From contig OZ360251.1 of the NCBI GenBank assembly GCA_977017645.1, positions 34,658,001 through 34,722,000 on the forward strand: DNA of 64,000 bases. Reading direction: 5' to 3'. Both the position numbers and the translations under genes were made by a program. This DNA is from Torpedo marmorata (Eukaryota). Within the stretch, counting starts at the first letter, position 1. Each line of letters begins with the position of its first letter. The notes under the pieces were generated by a model. It worked only from the letters and a program-made list of their open reading frames with translations, searched no databases and was not told the DNA's origin. This document shows, one piece after another, positions 4,790 through 63,141 of the stretch.

Positions 4790-5520
4790 GTTTGGCCACT
4801 TACCACCAGAGGCAGCCGTGTGCACCACCAGTCTGGACTTTGCCACACAAAGTATCCTTCGTGGAAACGTTTTTCCAGATGAAGACCTTCGACCACAAGG
4901 CCATCAGGCCGTGGTCAGCACGGAACGTCCTGCAGACACTGAGAGACGAGGACTCAATGGACACGGTGGGATGGTTCCTTGAGTCGACCGTCCTGGTCAT
5001 CTGGCAGAATGCCTCATCGCCAGGGCTCACAAACAAGCACCAGGCCTGGCTGGAGGTGAGAGGAGCACTCCCAGTCAGATCCTTCCTGTACAACAGGAAC
5101 ATCAGCCACAAAGCACGTTGTCCCCGAGATGACTGCGGTGGAGTTGGAGACAGTCGCCCACCTCTTTGCTGAATGCAGGTTCGCTAAGAGTGTGTGGAGA
5201 AGGATGCAAGGGTCCTTGTCACGGTTCATCCCCAGCAGCAGCGTGACAGAGGACTCTCTGATCTACGGGCTGTTCCCGGGGACACACACAGAGTCAGACA
5301 TCCAGAACTGCTGGAAGACCGTCAACTCGGTGAAAGAGGCACTTTGGTCTGCCCGAAACCTATTGGTCTTTCAGCACAGGGAGATGTCGGTGAGGGAATG
5401 ATGTCGGTGAGGGAATGCTGCCGACTGGCACATTCCAGGCTGCAGGAGTATGTGCTGAGGGACATGCTGAGGCTTGGTGCAGCCAACGCGTGGGCTCTGT
5501 GGGGAAGGACCACAGTCTAG
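4790..5520 (+). mobile_element. Tx1-type (L1 clade) ORF2 3' fragment
   Basis: zf-RVT-like CPRDDC..ETVAHLFAEC, LWSARNLLVF, RLQEYVLRD; frameshifted. Confidence 0.7.
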
Positions 5521-6570
5521 TCATAACTCCCTGAAAGTGGCGTCACAGGTGGATAGGGTTGTAAAGAGAGCTTTTGGCATATTGACCTTCATAAATCAAA
5601 GTATTGAGTATAGGAGCTGGGATGTTATGGTAAAGTTCTATAAGACATTGGTGAGGCCAAATTTGGAGTATTGTGTGCAGTTTTGGTCACCTAACGACAG
5701 GAAAGATATCAATAAGATAGAAAGAGTGCAGAGAAGATTTACTAGGATGTTGCCCGGACTTGAGGAACTGAGTTACAGGGAAAGGTTAAACAGGTTAGGA
5801 TTTTATTCCCTGGAACGTAGAAGAATGAGGGGAGATTTGATAGAGGTATTTAAAATTATGAGGGGGATAGACAGAGTAAATGTAGATAGGCTTTTTCCAC
5901 TGAGGGTAGGTGAGATACAAACCAGAGGACATGAGTTAAGGGTGAAAGGGGAAAAGTTTAGGGGGAACATGAGGGGGAACTTCTTCACACAGAGAGTGGT
6001 GGGAGTGTGGAACGAGCTGCCAGCTGAAGTGGTGAATGCGGGGCTCGATTTTAACATTTAAGAGGAATTTGGACAGGTACGTGGATGGGAGGGGTACGGA
6101 GGGCTATGGACTGGGTGCAGGTCAGTGGGACAAGAGAGAATAGTCCGGCACAGACTAGAAGGGCTGAAGGGCCTGCTTCTGTGCTGTAATGTTCTATGGT
6201 TCTAAGAAGAAAAACCTGACCCTTTTTGTCAGAAATAGATACAGGTTCGTGTGATTCATTCTGGTTTTTGAGTCAAGGATAACCAGCAAAATCATTAGCT
6301 GAACTGAAAGCAGCTCTGGTGAAATTCTCACCATTCAGAAATGTGACCGAGCTCCATGTTAAATTCATGTTAAATTCTAACTCAGTGGTGAATGCGGGCT
6401 CAATTTTAACATTTAAGAGGAATTTGGACAGGTACGTGGATGGGAGGGGTATGGAGGGATATGGGCTGGGTGCAGGTCAGTGGGACTAGGCAAAAAAAAT
6501 GGTTCGGCACAGATTAGAAGGGCCGAAGGGGCCTGTTTCTGTGCTGTAATGTTCTATGGTTCTATGGTTC
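5521..6570 (+). mobile_element. CR1 3' fragment plus a second copy of the 3' end (6385-6570)
   Basis: QVDRVVKRAFG...LVRPNLEYCVQFWSP; two GGGCCGAAGGGCCTG...TGTTCTATGGTTCT tails. Confidence 0.85.
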
Positions 6571-7934: not shown

Positions 7935-9610
7935 ATAGAACAGTATAGCACAGAAAACAGGCCCTTTAGCCCTTCTAGTCTGTGCCAAACTATTATTCTG
8001 CCTCGTCCCACTGACCTGCACCCAGTCCATAGCCCTCCATACCCCTCCCATCCATACCTGTCCAAATTCTTCTTAAATGTGAAAATTGAGCCCGCATTCA
8101 CCACTTCAGCTGGCAGCTCGTTCCACACTCCCACCACTTTCTGTGTGAAGAAGTTCCCCCTAAACTTTTCCCCTTTCACCCTTAACCCATGACCTCTGGT
8201 TTGTATCTCACCTACCCTCAGTGGAAAAAGCCTATCTACATTTACTCGGTCTATCTCCCTCATAATTCAAGATTCAAGATTCAATTTATTGTCATGCAAT
8301 AAAACAGTGTCATATTACACGAAATTCCTTTTGCCTGCTGTAAGGCAGACAGATTCGCCATCGGCAGAAATTGCCTGAAGCGCCTCTTACAGTCAGAGAA
8401 AGAAAAGCAAAAGAGAGTTCCCCCAGTGTCCGTAGATTCGCCTCCAGCGTTTCCGCAGCCTCACAGAGTCCAGTCCAAACCATTGGCAACCTGAGCTCCA
8501 GATCCGAACCTCCGACACAGTCAGGAACCCTTCAGCGCCTTCGGCACCCCCTCGCATCCCGGTTGTGATACCTGGTACTCCTCCAGCCAGTTCGAGCCAG
8601 TCTCCAACAGTCCGCAGCCTCCACGGGTTCCTCGCCTCGAGTCGCCAGCAGCCCGCTGCATGCATTGGTCTTTCAGCCGCAGAGCCCCCTCACTGGTCCG
8701 CCACCGTGGTCACCGTCCTGTGGGTCGTCTCCTCAGCTTCTCCTTCTCAGACGGGGGATGGTCTCCCCGTTTTCTGGTGCCCTGCGCCAGTCCTCTGCTC
8801 CCCTGGAGTCTGCAACCCCTCGTGGCTGCTGCCGATCAGAGGCGCTGCCATCTTGGGCGCAGACCCCGCGGTCGCGGGATTTTAAATAAAATTACCATCG
8901 GCTCCTTTAACGGACCGTTCAAAGCCTGTGCGGAGCTGATGGCAGTCGACCGGGCGGTTGGACCCGCGGGAGCGCTGTATCTCTGCTCCTCGCTCTCCGC
9001 GGGTCCGCACCAGCGGCAGCGCTACCGTTACAGCGGCTCCGGCAGCGCCGCCATCTTCCACATTTTAAATACCTCTATCAAATCTCCCCTCATTCTTCTA
9101 CGCTCCAGGGAATAAAGTCCGAACCTGTTTAACCTTTCCCTGTAACTCAGTTCCTGAAGTCCGGGCAACATCCTTGTAAATCTTCTCTGCACTCTTTCTA
9201 TCTTATTGATATCTTTCCTGTAGTTAGGTGTCCAAAAATGCACACAATATTCCAAATTTGGCCTCACCAATGTCTTATACAACTTTACCATAACATCCCA
9301 ACTCCTATACTCAAAGGTAAAGGTTCCATTATTGTCACGTAATACAATATTTAGAATGTAACATACATGAAATTCTTTAATTTTTGTCTACCGTAAGGCA
9401 GACAGAGGGTCGCTACTTTGTCCAGCGCCCCTCACAGAAACCTACAGCACCTGGTGTTCCTAGGCAGTCTCCCCTCCAAGTATTGACCAGTCCTGTGCCT
9501 GCTTAGCTTCCGAGATCAGACAATCCCAGTCGTATTCAGGCTCAATACTTTGCTTTATGAAGGCCAATATGCCAAAAGCTCTCTTTACAACCCTATCTAC
9601 CTGTGACGCA
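7935..9610 (-). mobile_element. CR1 3' fragment split by nested insertions
   Basis: ORF2 C-terminal pieces in ORFs 9028..9291 and 7850..8263 that rejoin across 8266-9060. Confidence 0.85.
8266..9060 (-). mobile_element. ~0.8 kb non-autonomous non-LTR element
   Basis: 5' GGAAGATGGCGGCG start; 3' AATAAA plus (TTGAATC)n tail; close copy at 40464..41294; interrupts a CR1. Confidence 0.75.
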
Positions 9611-39495: not shown

Positions 39496-39905
39496 CACAA
39501 TAGAACTTTACAAACTATCAGTTCAGTCCTAACCAGAGGTTAGGAGATTGGAGAAAACGATTTCAAGAGATCGAGAGATTTCAGTGATATGGAGAGATCA
39601 GAAAATCTGCGAGCGGATTTGAAATCATGAAGGTTTCAGAGTAGTTGGAGAGAGTGTTTCCATTGGCAGTGGGAATCGGGAAGTGAAAGATGAACGCTAA
39701 CTGCAAATTTCTACAGATGTGCGGTGTAAAGTGTGCTGACCGGCTGCATCACGGTCTGGTATGGGGACACCAATACCCATGAGTGTAAAGCCCTGCAAAA
39801 GGTAGCGGACACAGCCCAGGACATCACGGGTGAAACCCTCCCCACCATCGAGAACATCTATGTGGAACGCTGCCGTCGGAGAGCAGCAGCAATCATCAAA
39901 GATCC

Positions 39906-42900
39906 TGTAACATTACAAAGTTATTCTCTGATTGTTAATGAGCTTGCATTCTCCTCAGGTCACCTGACCTCTCTTCTTCCAATCAGCGTCTAGCTGCTGC
40001 CCCGCCCCTTTCTTTTAAATTCTAACTGCTGCCGTTAGAATTTGTAATGTGTTGTATGAGCTAAGTAGTTTTTATTTCTCATTTTCAACTGTAACTATAC
40101 AATTAGTAATTGAGTAAAGCTTGGAAAACAGTCACCAAGTCTTTTCATTCTCACAATTTACTCAACTTATCAAGCATGGCGACGGCGTGGAGGCCCAAGT
40201 GCTTAGACATCGACCCCAGCTCACCGACAGCTGCCAAGGAGTGGCGGCACTGGCGTACGATTTTCATGAACTACGTCGACGACTATAGGGACAAGATACC
40301 GAACAAGTACAGAACACTATTAGGCTGTGTGAGCTGCAACATTTTCGAATACATAGAAGGATGTGAAAATTTTGACTCAGCTATCTCTAAGTTGGACAGT
40401 TTATATGTGAAGACTCCCAATGAGGTTTTTGCCAGACATTTACTAGCTACCAGGCGGCAGAAGTCAAGATTCAAGATGCAATTTATTGTCATAGTAATAA
40501 GACAGTGTTATATTCCATGAAATTTCTTTTTGACTGCTGCAAGGCAGACAGATTCGCCACCAGCAGAAATTGCCTAAGCGCCTCTAACATTCCTTACAGT
40601 CAGAGAAAGAGAAGCAAAAGAGAGTCCCCCCAGAGTCACCGAGTGTCCGTAGATTTGCCTCCAGCGCTTCCGCAGCCTCCGCAGCCACACAGAATCCAGT
40701 CCAAACCATCGGCAACCCGAGCTCCAGATCCGAACCTCCGACACGGTCAGGTTGCCCTCGGCACCCCCTTGCATCCCGGTTCCGATACCTGGTACTCCTC
40801 CAGCCAGTTCGAGCAATCCTCCAGCAGTCCGTAGCCCGGCGTGAGTCCCCCGACAGCAGTCTCCAGCAGCCCACAGCCTCCGCGGGTTCCTCGCCTCGAG
40901 TCGCCAGCAGCCCGCCACATGCACTGGTCCTTCAGCCTCAGAGCCCCTCACCAGTCCGCTGCCGTGGTCACCGTCCCGTTGGTCGTCTCCTCCGCTTCTC
41001 CTTCTCAGACGGGGGTGGGGGGTGATCTTCCCGTCCTCTGGTGCCCTGCTCCAGTCCTCCGCTTCCCCGGAATCTGCAGCCCTCGTGGCTGCTGCCATCT
41101 TGGGCGCAGACCCCGTGGCCGCGGGATCTTAAATAAAACCACCGTCAGCTCCTTTAACGGGCCGTTCAAAGCCCGTGCGGAACCGACGGCAGTCGACTGC
41201 GTGGCTGGACCCCGCGGGAGCGCTGCATCTCCGCTCCCACGCTCCCCGCGGGTCTGCACCAGTGGCAGCGCTGCCGCTACAGCGGCTCCGGCAGCCAGGA
41301 GAATCATTAGATGATTTCTTCAGGGAGTTGGAAAAGTTAAAGAGAAACTGTAATTTTCGAGATCATAGTGCGGAGCAGTGTGGTAACGAGGCAATGCGTG
41401 ACGCGTTCATCGCTGGCATTGCCTCACCTGCAATACGCCAGCGTCTCTTAGAAAACAAAACACTGGACTTACAGACTGATTATAACCAAGCTTCTGCGTT
41501 AGACGTAGCTCAACGCAATAATGATGCATACGCTACCCCGGCGGCCCATACAGCTGCAGTAGTGAACCCTGAACCACCACAGGTACCGCAGGTATGTGAG
41601 AAGGATTCTTTAGCAGGGCTGCCTGATAACCTTCCAGTTGCTCTTGAGAAACCAGCTGTGGCTGCCACTTATAATACAAAACGGAAATGTTTCTTGTGGT
41701 TTCTCTTACCATTCACGGGATAACTGTCCAGCACGCGAGGCTACTTGTAATAAATGTGCCAAGAAGGGTGTGCAAATCCAAGGCCTCACCAAGCTCAGTG
41801 GCAACAGTGGTCAACTCTCATGTATTGGCTACACTTACTAATGTGCCACAAGGACTCGCTCAAGTCGCAACCTTTGTGACTGTGAATGGTAAAAGGTTAA
41901 GTGCTCTGTTGGATTCATGCAGCACTGATAGTTACATTAGAGAGAAAGTCGCGCGGGAACTAAAATTAAAGGTTCACCCATCCAGTAAAGACATTACTAT
42001 GGCTCAAAAAACTTTAAACACTAGTTCCCAAGGATATGTTGTTGTTCACCTAACTCTTAGTCTTAAAAGCCAGTCATACGCTGCCACACGATTTGGTGTA
42101 TTGAAGGCCTACGTTCTGACTTAATACTTGGCCAGGATTTCCAGCGCCAGCATCTGAGTGTGAATTTTCAATACGGAGGACCCTTGTCTGAGCGAACTGT
42201 GAATGGTGCTGATCATTACTGTGCACTGACAGCAGCAAAAATAGAAGAGCCATCCCTTTTTCTAAACTTATCACCAAGCTGTAAACCAATTGCTACCAAA
42301 TCAAGACGCTTTAGCAAAGATGATCAGGACTTCATTGCAGAGGAAATTCACCAATTACTTTCAGAAGGCATAATTGAGACGCGCATATCACCATGGCGAG
42401 CCCAGGTGGTAGTGGTGAAGGATACTACCCACCGACACAAGAAGCGAATGTGTGTGGATTATTCACAATCAATCAATACACGGAATTGAATGCTTACCCC
42501 TTGCCAAGGATTGACGAAATGGTGAACGAACTTGCAAAATATAGTGTGTTCTCTACCTTTGACCTGAAAAGTGCCTACCACCAAGTGTCACTGAAGGAGT
42601 TAGATAAGAAGTATACGGCTTTTGAAGCCAATGGACGTTTATACCAATTTTGTAGGATTCCATTTGGAGTCACAAATGGGGTAGCCACCTTCCAGCGAGC
42701 TATGGACAAGTAAGTTAGAGAAGAAAAACTGCAAGGTGCCTTCCCTTACCTTGATAATATCACTATTGCTGGACATACACAAGAGGGACATGATCAAAAT
42801 GTAAAGAAATTCCTAAAGACCATCAGTCAGAGGCACCTAACACTTAATGATTCAAAGACTGTGGAGTCTGTGAATTCCATTAATGTCCTTGGATACTGTG

Positions 42901-44890
42901 TGGGGAATGGTATAATTAAGCCAGATCCTGAGAAACTTCGCCCACTACAAGAGCTTCCTCCACCAGAAGATTTGCGATCCTTAAAAAGGGCACTCGGGAT
43001 GTTTGCTTATTATGCCAAATGGATTCATGGGTTTTCTAACAAGATTCAACCGATGGTAAATACAGAGAAATTTCCAATGGAGGAAAAGGCCCTGAACGCC
43101 TTTAACTTACTAAAGAGAGAGTTGGAGGAAGCCACCCTGCACTCGGTGGATGAAAACTTACCCTTTGAGGTAGAGTGTGATGCATCTGATGTGGCTATTT
43201 CTGCTGTCCTTAACCAAGGAGGACGGCCTGGTGCATTCATGTCAAAGACGCTACAAGGAAGTGAGCTGCACTACCACATTGTCGAGAAAGAAGTGATTGC
43301 CATCATTGAGGCAGTGTGCAAATGGAGCCACTACCTGGCACGGCGCCACTTTAGCTTGGTTACTGATCAGAGGTCAGTGGCCTTTATGTTTGACAGTAAA
43401 AAGTGTACAAAGATAACGCAAAGATTCAAGAATGGAGGCTGGAACTTGCAGCATTTAGTTACACAATAAAGAACCGTCCTGGGAAAGAGAATGTGGTCCC
43501 TGACACATTTAGTCGGGTGTACACTTGTTCAGCCTTTACTACCTCCACACTCGCTGACATTCACAACGGACTTTGTTATCCAGGAATAACTCGGCTGCTG
43601 CATTTTGTAGAGCTAAGAATCTCCCCTTTTCTACAGAAGATGTCAAGAAGACTTGTTTTTTATGCAGGGTCTGTGCTGAACTAAAGCCTCAGTTCTACCA
43701 CCCACCAGGAAGGACTCTTATCAAAGCAACAAAACCTATGGAACGGTTTAGTATTGATTTCAAGGGACCTTTTCCGACAGCTTCGTGTAACCCATGTCTA
43801 CGTACAGTAGTTGATGAATACTCGCATTTCCCCTTTGCCTTTCCATGTCCCAATATGCATACTACAACAGTGATCAGATGCCTGGATCTGCTATTTAGCC
43901 TATGCGGAATGCCAAATTACATACACTCTGATCGAGGCACCACCTGAGTGTCTGAGGATCTGAAAGATTATCTCTCCCAGAAGGGGGTTGCCACAAGTCA
44001 TACTACCCCATACAACCCAATTGGGAATGGACAGGTAGAGAGGTTCAACGGCATCATATGGGAGGCAGTCCATTTGGCCCTTAGATCACGTAACCTGCCC
44101 GAGAAGCATTGGGAACTGGTGCTTCCTGAGGTACTACACTCCCAAAGATCGCTGTTGTGTACAGCAACAAATACTACACCCATGATCGTTTTTAACATTC
44201 CAACGCCGCTCATCCCATGGAAATTCACTGCCCTCCTGGCTAGTGACCCATACTACTAAGAAGGTTTGTGAGGAGTAACAAGAACGAACCACTTGTAGAT
44301 CAAGTTGAACTCCTTGACAGTAATCCAACATATGCAAACGTCAGGTAGCCAGATGGACGGGAGTCTACTGTGTCTGTTCATGACGGCACCTTGTCCAGAA
44401 GCCTAGACAATCCCCACATCTCCTATTGTGGAACAAGATAAAAAGAAATCTGGTTGTACCAATACTAGAGGAGGAGGAAGATATGACATGCCGTAGTGTG
44501 GAGGATGATGAAACAGTAGCTCCACAAGAACTAAGGAGATCCGGTCGTGTATCAAAACCTCCCAATCGATATGGATGGGAGTAGTCCCGTAAAGTGATGC
44601 TTGATACTTCTAGTGTTTTATTTTTTAGCAGGGAAGAATGTAATATTATAAAGTTATTCTTTAATTGTCAATGAGCTTGCATTCTTCTCAGGTCACCTGA
44701 CCTCTCTTCCTCCAATCAGCTTCTAGCTGCTGCCCCGCCCCTTTCTTTTAAATTCTAACTGCTGCTGTTAGAATTTAGAATGTGTTGTATGAGCTAAGTA
44801 GTTTTTTATTTCTCATTTTCAACTGTATCTATACAATTAAGTTGAGTAAAGCTTGGAAAACAGTCACCAAGACTTTTCATTCTCACAACA
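39906..44890 (+). mobile_element. Gypsy LTR retrotransposon A (degenerate gag-pol)
   Basis: LTRs 39906-40155 and 44639-44890; 5-bp TSD GATCC inside a Rex1 fragment; gag ATG 40176, protease LLDSCS, RT FPYLDNI, RNase H ECDAS, integrase IHSDRG; PPT before 44639. Confidence 0.95.
40464..41294 (-). mobile_element. Non-autonomous element inserted in gag (same family as 8266..9060)
   Basis: Removing it restores LATRRQK|PGESLDDF. Confidence 0.8.
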
Positions 44891-44994
44891 GATCCACACC
44901 ACCCAGCACACGCTCTGTTCTCGCTGCTGCCATCAGTAAAGAGGTATAGGTGCCACAAGACTCGCACCACCAGGTTCAGGAACAGTTGCATAGC

Positions 44995-58608: not shown

Positions 58609-61600
58609 TGATATGCCTATCAATTAGCACTCAAGAGACTATGAGAGGGTTAACGAACCATAGGCTTTAATACACATAAAACAGACCAACAGTAGACCTG
58701 CAGATCTCGACCGGACTGTGGGCGGAGCAGTGGCACACAGGCCTTTATTCAGGTGAGAAAAGGGGAGGGATTACCTGGATACCCAAAGGAGGGGAGAGGA
58801 GTCGCCGGGACAGACAGCAGTACATACAATACACAAACAGTGGTTTACCACATTCACCCCTCCTTTTAAAAAGAGTCCAGCGGGGTGAAGTGGCCACAAT
58901 ACAATCGCTACAGGAATTCAAAATATTTACAGTCATAATCTACAGGTCAAGGCGATCCGGTGGTTTGGCTCGCCTTTGTGACCTGCGCAGTACCCTGGGT
59001 GCGGGTTGTGGTGTAGGGGGTACCCTGGGTGCGGGTTGTGGTGCAGGGGTAGATGGCAAGGCCGTCGCCTCCTCCTGTGGTGCTGGGTGAGATGGCAGGA
59101 TTGTGGGTTCCATCGAGGGTGCCTGGTCTGACGTTGTAGAAGAGGGAATAGGGAGGGGCCGCAGTGAGTGGTCTTGCCCGTCGAGAGGTTCCTCCGGCGC
59201 TCCCGCGGGCGCCAGGTCCCGAATTGAGACCGTGTCCTCTCTCCCATCCGGGAAGACCACGTAGGCGTACTGCGGGTTAGCGTGCGCTAACTGCACCCTC
59301 TGGACCGCGGGCTCATATTTGCTGCTCTGGAGGTGGTTGCGGAGCAGCACCGGCCCCGGAGACGTCAGCCAGGCAGGCAGGGCGGTTCCGGTGTTCGACC
59401 TCCTGGAGAAGGAGAAAAATCTCTCATGAGGCGTTACATTGGTGGCTGTGCACAGTAAGGACCGTATCGAATGGAGGGCTTCGGGGAGAACATCTTGCCA
59501 GCGGGAAACCGGCAGTCCCCTGGACTTGAGAGCCAGGAGCGCCGCCTTCCAGACAGTGGCGTTCTCCCTTTCCACCTGTCCATTACCTCGGGGGTTGTAT
59601 GCGGTGGTCCTACTAGTGGCGATGCCCCGGGTCAGCAGGAACTGGCGCAGCTCCTCACTCATAAAAGCTGATCCCCGGTCGCTATGAATGTAGTTCGGGA
59701 AGCCGAACAGCGTAAATACCTGGCGAAGAGCTTTTATGGTTGAGGCAGCCGAAGTGTCGGGGCAGGGAATGGCGAAGGGGAACCGCGAGTACTCGTCAAT
59801 AATGTTCAGAAAGTACACATTGCGGTTCGTGGAGGGAAGGGGCCCCTTGAAGTCAATGCTGAGACGTTCAAAGGGGCGAGTGGCTTTGATCAGCTGTGCC
59901 TTGTCGGGGCGGTAGAACTGGGGTTTGCACTCCGCGCAAACCCGGCAACTGCTGATCATTGTCCTGACCTCTTCCAGGGAGTATGGCAGGTTCTGTGACT
60001 TCACGAAGTGAAAGAGCCTGGTAATTCCTGGGTGGCATAGGTCGTCATGTAGGGCGTGTAATCGGTCGACCTGCGCGCTGGCGCATGATCCCCGGGATAG
60101 AGCATCGGAGGGCTCATTGAGCTTCCCGGGCCGGTACATGATGTCGTAATTGTAGGTGGAGAGCTCTATTCTCCACCTCATGATCTTGTCATTTTTGATC
60201 TTACCCCGCTGCTGATTGTTGAACATGAATGCCACAGAGCGTTGATCTGTCAGCAGGGTAAAATGCTTACCGGCGAGATAGTGCCTCCAATGCCTGATGG
60301 CCTCCACTATGGCCTGGGCTTCCTTCTCCACCGCTAAGTGCCGAATTTCGGGGCCCTGAAGGGTTCGAGAGAAAAATGCCACCGGCCTTCCCGCCTGGTT
60401 GAGGGTAGCAGCCAGCGCGAAGTCCGATGCATCACTCTCCACCTGGAAAGGTGTCTCCTCATCCACTGCGTGCATTGTTGCTCGCGCAATGTCCCCTTTT
60501 ATAAGGTCGAACGCCTTACGTGCCTCCAAAGCAAGGGGAAATGCAGTGGATTTCACAAGGGGTCGGGCCTTATCCGCATAATTTGGGACCCATTGGGCAT
60601 AATAGGAAAAGAACCCGAGGCATCGTTTAAGGGCTCTGGGATTGGTGGGGAGCGGAAGTTCCAGCAGGGGCCGCATGCGTTCGGGGTCTGGTCCAATTAC
60701 CCCGTTCTCGACCACATACCCCAAAATAGCGAGGCGAGTGGTACCAAACACGCATTTTTCTTTGTTATACGTGAGGTTTAGAGCTTTGGCCACCTGCAGG
60801 AACCTCCGGAGGTTGTTGTCATGGTCCTGACGATCATAACCACAGATGGTAATGTCGTCAAGATATGGGAAAGTGGCTTTAAGTTTGTAATGGTCCACAA
60901 TCCTGTCCATCTCCCGCTGAAAAACAGAAACACCATTAGTAACACCAAACGGAAGGCGCAGGAATTGGAACAGCTTGCCATCTGCCTCGAACGCGGTGTA
61001 TGAACGGTCCTCCCGACAGATAGGGAGCTGGTGATATGCCGATTTCAAGTCGATGGTGAAAAGAGACGGTATTGGGCAATTTGGTTCACCATCTCCGCTA
61101 TCCGTGGTAGCGGGTATGCGTCTAGTAGCGTAAACCTGTTAATGGTTTGGCTGTAGTCCACCACCATTCTGCTCTTGGCCCCTTTTACAACAACCACCTG
61201 GGCTCTCCAGGGACTATTACTCTTCTCTATAATCCCTTCCTGTAGCAGTCTCTGTACCTCCGTCTTGATAAATGCTCTGTCCTCGGCACTGTAATGCCTG
61301 CTTTTAGTTGCCACAGGCCTACAGTCCGGGGTCAGGTTCGCAAACAACGACGGAGGCGAGATCTTAAGGGTGGAGAGACCACAGGTGGTTTCGGGCGTGC
61401 TATCCAGAAACTGGTGGTTGGCTACAGTGATCGCGGGGAGAGGACCGTCATACCGCATTGTAACGCTCTGCAAATGGCTTTGAAAATCCAAACCCAGTAA
61501 CACCGGCGCACACAAACGGTTCCTGACAAACAAGGAAAATTGCCGGTACTCAGTCCCTTGTACCACAATGTTCGCCACACACGCCCCCCGGATGTCTGTT

Positions 61601-63141
61601 GTGTGGGACCCCGACGCCATGGCCACCCTCTGGCTTACCGGTACGATCGTTAGGCCACAGCGTTGAACAGTATCCGGGTGGATAAAGCTCTCAGTGCTGC
61701 CAGTGTCGAATAAACACGTTATCTTGTGTCCCTCGACCAGTATGTCCATCATGGATCTTGTCAGCTGGTGGGGAACGTTCTGGTCGAAGGTGATGGATGC
61801 CAAAGTTGGGGTGAAGTCGTCTTGGTCCAAGGTCTTTAAAAATGGCCGCTCCCGTGGGTTGCACGTGTCGCTGGAGGTCTCTGTACAAAATGGCGGCGCC
61901 GGAAGTGCAGGAAGTAACGAGGTACGGCTCTGAGATGGCGGCGCCGGAAGTGCCAGCATGAAAGATGGCCGCTTCCACTCCTCACACGCGGTCGGCGCCG
62001 GAAGTGCTAGTCTGCAAGATGGCCGCTCCCATCTCTCGCACGCGGCACTACTCGGGCCCGCGCGCGGCTTGGAGCGGCAGGCCTTCGCGAAGTGGCCTTT
62101 ATTGCCGCAGTTGGAACAAGTCGCGTCGCGGGCCGGGCAGCGTTTCCTCTTATGCTTGTCGAGCCCGCAGAAGTAGCACTTCTCGGGCTCGCGATTAACA
62201 GCTGCGGCGGTGAGAGTAGCGTCGGTAGCGGTCGGGTCGCGGGTAACGGCGGCAGCAATCGGGTCGCGGGCCACAGCGGCCACAGTTGGATCGGTGGGGC
62301 TGGGGGACGGGGCGATCCACGCATTAGCCTGGGGGTCCCGCGTCTGCATCGCGTCGGAGTTCTGCAGCGCGGACTCCAGCGTGCGAGCCATCGCCACCGC
62401 AGAACGGAGATCGAGGTCAGAGTGCTCCAGCAGTCGCTGGCGTACGTATACTGACCTCATCCCCATAATAAAGGTGTCCCTCTCCAGCAGATCAACATGT
62501 TGTTCTTCAGTCAGCGCTTTACAGGCGCACGCTCGCACTAGGGACTGGATGTCCCTGACAAAGTCCACTATTGACTCCCCGGCCCGCTGTTTTCGTAACG
62601 ATAGTCTATACCTCGCGTAGACCTCATTAACAGGGGTCACATAGATCTTTCTCAGGGCCTCCATCGCCTCGTCGTACGTCCCGCATTTCCAGATGGTTGA
62701 ATACAACCGAGGGCTTACCCTAGATACTAGGACCTCTAGTTTCTGCTCGTCGCTTTCGGCTTTGACCTCCTTTGAGAACGATCAGAGGCAGCGTAGCCAG
62801 TGTTCGAATGCATGGCCAGCATCAGGAGCTAAAGGGTCGATGTCCAGTCGGTCCGGTCGGAGGGCGCCTTCCATAATTTTTCTTATGTGTATTAAATTGA
62901 TATTCCTATCAATTAGCACTCAAGAGACTATGAGAGGGTTAACGAACCATAGGCTTTAATACACATAAAACAGACCAACAGTAGACCTGCAGATCTCGAC
63001 CGGACTGTGGGCGGAGCAGTGGCACACAGGCCTTTATTCAGGTGAGAAAAGGGGAGGGATTACCTGGACACCCAAAGGAGGGGAGAGGAGTCGCCGGGAC
63101 AGACAGCAGTACATACAATACACAAACAGTGGTTTTCCACA
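58609..63141 (-). mobile_element. Gypsy LTR retrotransposon B, near intact
   Basis: 244-bp LTRs 58609-58852 and 62898-63141 (TG..CA, about 3 differences); 5-bp TSD ATGAT; PPT AAAAGGAGGGGTGAA. Confidence 0.97.
58940..62874 (-). pseudogene. gag-pol of Gypsy B (zinc knuckles, PR, RT, RNase H, IN)
   Basis: ATG 62874; CYFCGLDKHKRKRC, CSNCGNKGHFAKAC, LFDTGS, YLDD, ESDAS, HSDRG; TGA at 62784-62782 and a frameshift ~61060. Confidence 0.92.

Follow-up and report, generated by a model that had tools for sequence, protein, structure and literature searches.

Self-priming has been established for the retrotransposon Tf1 of Schizosaccharomyces pombe (PMC7175516, PMC5341516, PMC4600332). Its first 11 bases pair with the PBS, the RNase H cleavage site lies between bases 11 and 12 (PMC7175516), and the leader is arranged as a three-duplex "pretzel" (PMC10085805). 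In Tf1 and Tf2, Tj1, Tosmo1-3 and the Tf1/sushi chromoviruses, the PBS is located just after the 5' LTR and is complementary to the LTR and not to a tRNA. Self-priming was also predicted for plant Tcn1 (gypsy) and TAR (copia) based on at least 10 LTR-complementary bases occurring 0-5 bases after the 5' LTR (PMC6317226). In HIV-1, the poly(A) signal near the RNA 5' end is structurally masked within the duplex of the polyA hairpin (PMC2645353), which is present at both RNA ends.

The DNA analyzed here is a stretch of 64,000 nucleotides of the Torpedo marmorata contig OZ360251.1, referred to as the window. It carries two elements, A and B, of a Ty3/gypsy clade in which the PBS likewise follows the 5' LTR directly and pairs with a segment of the LTR, the arm. 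As in Tcn1 and TAR, at least 10 complementary bases are found 0-5 bases after the 5' LTR; the hosts of those two are plants and fungi, Tcn1 being kin to Tf1/sushi and TAR a copia element, whereas the named relatives of the clade are animal. The duplex spans 11 bases in Tf1 and about 13 in the clade, and the Ty3/gypsy domain order is common to both. As judged from sequence, the central duplex of the clade agrees with that of Tf1 self-priming in every respect tested. It lacks two defining Tf1/sushi features, namely the chromodomain, usual at the integrase C-terminus of chromoviruses, and the side duplexes of the pretzel leader; a local RCC...GGY hairpin is present. It also differs from Tf1/sushi by an arm that ends in a poly(A)-like hexamer and apparently by its own RT-RNase H branch, which stands apart from chromovirus-like sequences. 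This hexamer lies in a duplex near the RNA 5' end as in HIV-1, but its partner is the PBS, which occurs only after the 5' LTR, and the masking is putative. While self-priming in Tf1 was demonstrated by experiment, in the clade it is a reading of the sequence.

Elements A and B in the window

No tRNA genes were found in the window, which includes 100 N and, at 19380-21000, long GA-rich tandem arrays with units of 16-18 bases. The features of element A, all on the + strand, are as follows.

39906-44890, +: element A, a Gypsy element flanked by a 5-bp TSD
39901..39905 (left) and 44891-44895 (right), +: TSD GATCC
39906..40155, +: 5' LTR, 250 bp, TG...CA ends
40107..40118, +: arm, 5' LTR copy (candidate self-primer), with perfect pairing over 9 bases (40110-40118) and AGTAAA at its end
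40119..40140, +: predicted hairpin directly 3' of the arm, 40119-40124 pairing with 40135-40140
40156..40156, +: spacer between the terminal CA of the LTR and the PBS, a single A
40157..40169, +: PBS lacking TGG, the complement of a segment in the LTR of element A
40176..44585, +: gag-pol region, disrupted by frameshifts, stops and an insertion
about 40458-41295 (end approximate), +: insertion in gag
44627..44638, +: polypurine tract
44639..44890, +: 3' LTR, 252 bp
44838..44850, +: arm, 3' LTR copy, 13/13 complementary to the PBS, with AGTAAA at 44845-44850

The insertion site of element A is a copy of a dispersed repeat, and uninterrupted copies of the flanking repeat exist (families D5 and D9). 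The insertion in gag is an unrelated repeat of ~840 bp with a 79% identical copy at 8261-9046. The two LTRs are 93% identical, and the end of the 5' LTR (40153-40156) is 3 bases short compared to that of the 3' LTR (44885-44890); TSD placement sets the true 3' end of the element at 44890. Because of this shortening, the distance from the arm to the LTR end is 37 in the 5' LTR and 40 in the 3' LTR, so that the 40 nt given by the initial annotation for the AGTAAA-ending arm is true of the 3' copy.

The fold-back described in that annotation was recovered at its coordinates. The PBS at 40157-40169 and the arm at 44838-44850 are perfect reverse complements of each other, one A separates the PBS from the 5' LTR, and the gag ATG follows at 40176. 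The PBS/arm sequence had only 2 matches in the whole window and none in 100 shuffles, and none of 20000 shuffled versions of the 3' LTR yielded a complement of at least 13 bases. The 5' LTR copy keeps 9 bases at 40110-40118, as had been claimed, a pairing that is marginal when taken alone (reached in 12 of 200 shuffles). In the predicted leader fold of element A, 3 more pairs occur beyond a one-base bulge (z -1.47).

Element B is on the opposite strand, with the following features.

63141-58609, -: element B, LTRs 98.8% identical, TSD ATCAT
62898..63141, -: 5' LTR, 244 bp
62955..62968, -: arm, 14 bases with ATTAAA at its end; 3' LTR copy at 58666-58679
62883..62896, -: PBS, 14/14 complementary to the element's own arm
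62874, -: gag ATG
58609-58852, -: 3' LTR

The LTR of element B also holds a second, canonical AATAAA upstream of the arm, at about 63033-63038 (-), 135 bases before the LTR end. Comparison of the two elements bore out that their LTRs are unrelated (best local match 11 bases) and that their gag starts are similar (WRPKCLDIDP and LRPDRLDIDP). The fold-back of A had been described as having a different sequence from that of B; 4 of 13 arm bases differ, all of them compensated, but the remaining 9 of 13 are identical. Across the families surveyed below, the near-invariant part of the arm/PBS duplex is the AAA:TTT junction. Reading frames are broken in both elements, and given this damage together with that of the 5' arm of element A, the self-priming claim concerns the ancestor of element A.

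LTR-PBS pairing across the lineage

The survey started from 88 loci, with a gag start in 43 and no detectable gag start in 45. Three of the 43 were dropped for leaders under 100 bases, and the remaining 40 together with A and B formed 26 families, among which gag DNA identity was 34-75%. The initial annotation had proposed measuring the frequency of the complementarity in related elements and had named a lack of complementarity or canonical TGG PBSs in related families as evidence against it. Neither was found for the group as a whole. In 20 of the 26 families, at least 11 perfect base pairs join the PBS to the 5' LTR of the same element (median 13), and 25 of 26 are without TGG near the called LTR end. 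Non-cognate pairs of PBS and LTR reached at least 11 bases in 3 of 650 cases (median 5), and none of 100000 permutations reached the observed pairing sum. In element A and two further families (L022, L049), pairing of 13-16 bases was found with the 3' LTR copy. Reading by eye gave 11 pairs including one G-U in L080 and 9 perfect pairs only in L016. The single outright failure, without any partner, was L036, which is also the sole family with TGG near the called LTR end and whose junction call is doubtful. Host DNA after the 3' LTR, used as a flank control in 24 elements, paired over at most 7 bases (median 4), versus a median of 13 for the PBS. One locus, L052, was omitted from this control as its middle is inverted; in this copy of the L002 family, a 1.5-kb internal inversion (4972-6500), either real or an assembly artefact, lies between intact LTRs with a TSD. 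The leader of L019 carries the LTR end and PBS twice in tandem, ~57 bases apart. The fold-back is a real, lineage-wide feature, and the earlier statement that the structure is kept while the sequence varies is supported.

The minus-strand primer of a retroelement must end just after the terminal CA of the LTR. The duplex starts 1-2 bases after this CA, with a single A as the spacer in 20 of 23 tabulated families. These 23 were chosen for at least 11 pairs, and positions 1-11 hence pair by selection; beyond them, pairing occurs at position 13 in 21/23 and at position 14 in 14/23 families, and it extends to 15-19 bases in several. All four pair types were found at position 5. In cis, the loop between arm and PBS measures 20-70 bases, the gag ATG is located 15-50 bases after the PBS start, and the arm/PBS duplex is part of the minimum-energy fold of all 20 contiguous leaders.

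Matched changes on both sides of the duplex were found in two families. Compared to four sibling loci with 98-99% identity, two of which share one insertion site, L045 carries a transversion at pair 7 that is present in its two LTRs and answered by the complementary base in its PBS. In the family of element B, among 40 of 78 variant rows listed from contigs of 4 runs, both sides of pair 8 (places 62889 and 62962) were changed in one X4 contig, while one X1 contig showed a change of the PBS side only, a wobble intermediate. Unmatched changes also occur, namely in the PBS only (L046 and L065), in both LTRs with an unchanged PBS (L004), and as a pair-14 mismatch carried by 4 of the 7 copies that make up the L002 family. 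The initial annotation had read covariation as an argument for function. The lineage-wide conservation of pairing agrees with this, but matched changes may also result from mechanical copying of the primer into the PBS; since the plus strand is expected to make this copy, they are the predicted footprint and no independent proof of selection. Template switching between inverted repeats could mimic them as well.

The arm is directly followed by RCC in 18 of 23 families, 17 of which also have a downstream GGY. Shuffles gave a mean of 5.6 for RCC...GGY and reached the observed count in 0 of 10000, and an upstream control gave 7/17. The first four bases after the arm paired locally in 14 of 20 predicted folds of contiguous leaders, although a plain test of stem length gave a weak result for the hairpin (sum 99 versus a shuffle mean of 88 and maximum of 107). 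In element A, the sequence after the arm begins with GCTT and not with RCC, and its hairpin is, by fold prediction, a positional counterpart in other letters. A search of 20 families for the two side duplexes of the Tf1 pretzel gave nothing beyond chance, with 117 and 243 of 300 shuffles reaching the observed values, and a TATA-like box was present in just 1 of 20. An initiator-like hexamer, with at least 5/6 matches to the TCAKTY consensus (PMC3601003), was found at the arm start in 9/23 families against 74/1861 (4%) in the background, a post hoc comparison.

The initial annotation had pointed out a poly(A)-like hexamer in the arm. It is present in both A and B, but it is canonical in only about half of the families, with 12 of 23 arms ending exactly in AATAAA or ATTAAA and two more holding one shifted by a base. 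Non-canonical arm ends are AGTAAA in A and GTTAAA, GGTAAA or TCAAAA elsewhere. The fold-back is retained beside non-canonical hexamers in L020 (GACAAA), L037 (TCAAAA) and L086 (GGTAAA). Some LTRs hold a second hexamer, downstream of the arm in L007 and upstream in B, while in five LTR-paired families and in L049 the hexamer of the arm is the only canonical one in the downstream part of the LTR. As arm hexamers vary and some LTRs have a second one, a poly(A) role would not be universal; from the sequence pattern, such a role of the arm is plausible.

Identity of the clade

Assignment to Ty3/gypsy (Metaviridae) follows from gag, the Pfam domain order of protease, RT, RNase H and integrase, TG...CA LTRs, a polypurine tract and a TSD; the best match among solved structures was Ty3 Gag-Pol. 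No chromodomain was detected in element B or in any of 30 relatives that were scanned from among the 57 aligned. Among named proteins, those of rays and sharks come closest, with 67-82% identity, and more distant named relatives are from a sea anemone, nematodes and an insect. Of 45 longer proteins, 22 showed 48-78% RT-RNase H identity to B, and the remaining 23 did not exceed 35%. In the RT-RNase H tree of 35 rows, whose backbone was unresolved, the clade formed a single branch on a long stem with 100/100 support, standing apart from four chromovirus-like rows (100/99); no named Tf1 or sushi sequence was included in this tree. One nested arrangement of the clade, a grouping picked after the tree was seen, was rejected (p-AU 0.021), and a sister position was not (p-AU 0.26). 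The first tree omitted L037 and L086, which had short matches. Elements A and B fall in different sub-branches and are therefore not a sister pair.

No relatives were found in viral contigs. Eight contigs from bacterial metagenome-assembled genomes (L081-L088) carry this animal retrotransposon, likely as host contamination. Three gene models (P0127, P0142, P0044) join the element polyprotein to unrelated domains (leucine-rich-repeat receptor, LDL-receptor repeat and HECT) and are probably annotation fusions. In L008, L013, L031, L033, L037 and L081, gag is found downstream of pol, an order like that of circularly permuted assemblies with a single LTR or of LTR circles.

Both A and B, like 14 of the 24 relatives with paired LTRs, have 5-bp TSDs and TG...CA ends. 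Among named groups, Troyka has 3-bp TSDs and CG...CG ends (PMC12440569) and Saci2 a 4-bp TSD (PMC12471100), and both were rejected as candidates on TSD length. No clade name for the peptide motifs of B was found in the literature searched, including part of the supplements. The clade may be Cigr-1 of Ciona intestinalis, whose LTRs measure ~245 bp and whose single ORF has ~1210 codons, with a gag resembling that of Mag-type elements from echinoderms; these sizes fit those of the LTRs and polyprotein in the present clade. Hosts of the Cigr-1 clade are Ciona intestinalis and also molluscs and annelids. The unnamed MolGy clades (PMC6238403) are alternative identities.

Priming in this clade was not described in the available portions of PMC6238403, PMC8556966, PMC3670739, PMC12440569, PMC11673190, PMC2774666, PMC6934838 and PMC12471100, the first two of which do not mention a PBS there, and the description of Kuafuortervirus gives no PBS or TSD data. 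The literature searched, outside whose scope lay Repbase reports and most subscription papers (including those on Cigr-1 and on vertebrate Tf1/sushi), contained no description either, and prior notice is possible. The new part is the RCC...GGY hairpin directly after the arm.

Priming and its alternatives

The LTR-pairing PBS of the clade probably serves Tf1-like self-priming without a tRNA. We infer transcription start, cleavage, priming and poly(A) masking along the following lines. The transcript would begin on or close to the arm's first base, about 11-16 bases ahead of the arm's end, and its 5' terminus would fold back to pair with the PBS, located 20-70 bases further downstream beside the RCC...GGY hairpin. 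The RNase H of the element would cut after the last A, placing the primer 3' end one base from the terminal CA of the LTR. Plus-strand synthesis would then copy the primer into the new PBS, and changes in the LTR would thus be passed on to the PBS. With arms ending in AATAAA or ATTAAA, this duplex would in addition hide the poly(A) signal, though in the 5' LTR only, as no PBS follows the 3' LTR. Pairing of 15-19 bases in several families counts against self-priming, since it exceeds what a start at the initiator-like motif needs. The missing pretzel side duplexes, the rarity of a TATA-like box and the exceptions L036, L016 and L080 also count against it.

This longer complementarity could be used if the primer were LTR-derived without being the 5' end of the RNA itself, with the 3' arm copy, extended by upstream LTR sequence, or a short RNA of another or solo LTR annealing to the PBS and being cut. 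Such a primer accounts equally well for the missing TGG and the matched changes, but we consider it unlikely: a cut after the 3' arm would be expected to destroy the repeat needed for strand transfer, the short cis loop and the presence of the duplex in every minimum-energy fold of the contiguous leaders favour pairing within the leader, and precedent favours 5'-end priming.

Also unlikely is a duplex that is only regulatory, hiding the 5' poly(A) signal or modulating how accessible the gag start is, with a host RNA such as a tRNA fragment as the primer. The PBS differs among families and follows the LTR rather than a fixed host RNA, pairing is kept where the hexamer is GTTAAA, GGTAAA or TCAAAA, and the duplex begins exactly at the primer position. 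This stands against the canonical or base-shifted hexamers of many arms, their sole occurrence in the downstream LTR of some families, the masking known from HIV-1 and the short distance to the gag ATG, all of which would suit regulation.

That the inverted repeat is a functionless by-product of chance or of template switching in copying is very improbable and already largely refuted, for despite the marginal 5' copy of element A, the ready pairing of AT-rich sequence and the one family of 26 without pairing, position and length are fixed across gag DNA of low identity, the non-cognate and flank controls are low, and the element is without any other primer site.

Self-priming from the RNA 5' end is thus preferred. 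In its fullest form, the reading would be that a widespread animal Gypsy lineage evolved self-priming independently of Tf1/sushi, that one 13-base element acts as initiator, poly(A) signal and primer, that the 5' poly(A) signal is silenced once the arm is paired to the PBS, and that primer copying keeps the arms matched; taken together, these points are put forward tentatively and are rather doubtful.

Self-priming is usually seen as a mark of the Tf1/sushi chromoviruses and a few plant lineages. If true, self-priming through another RNA fold, in a clade that lacks a chromodomain and occurs in cartilaginous fish as well as many invertebrates, would broaden this picture and bear on which came first in LTR elements, tRNA or hairpin priming, a question raised in PMC3601003. 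For annotation, CA-A-TTTA paired with an upstream TAAA-RCC offers a signature of elements that tRNA-based PBS finders would miss. The clade would also supply a compact natural example in which a poly(A) signal may be inactive in just one of the two LTRs.
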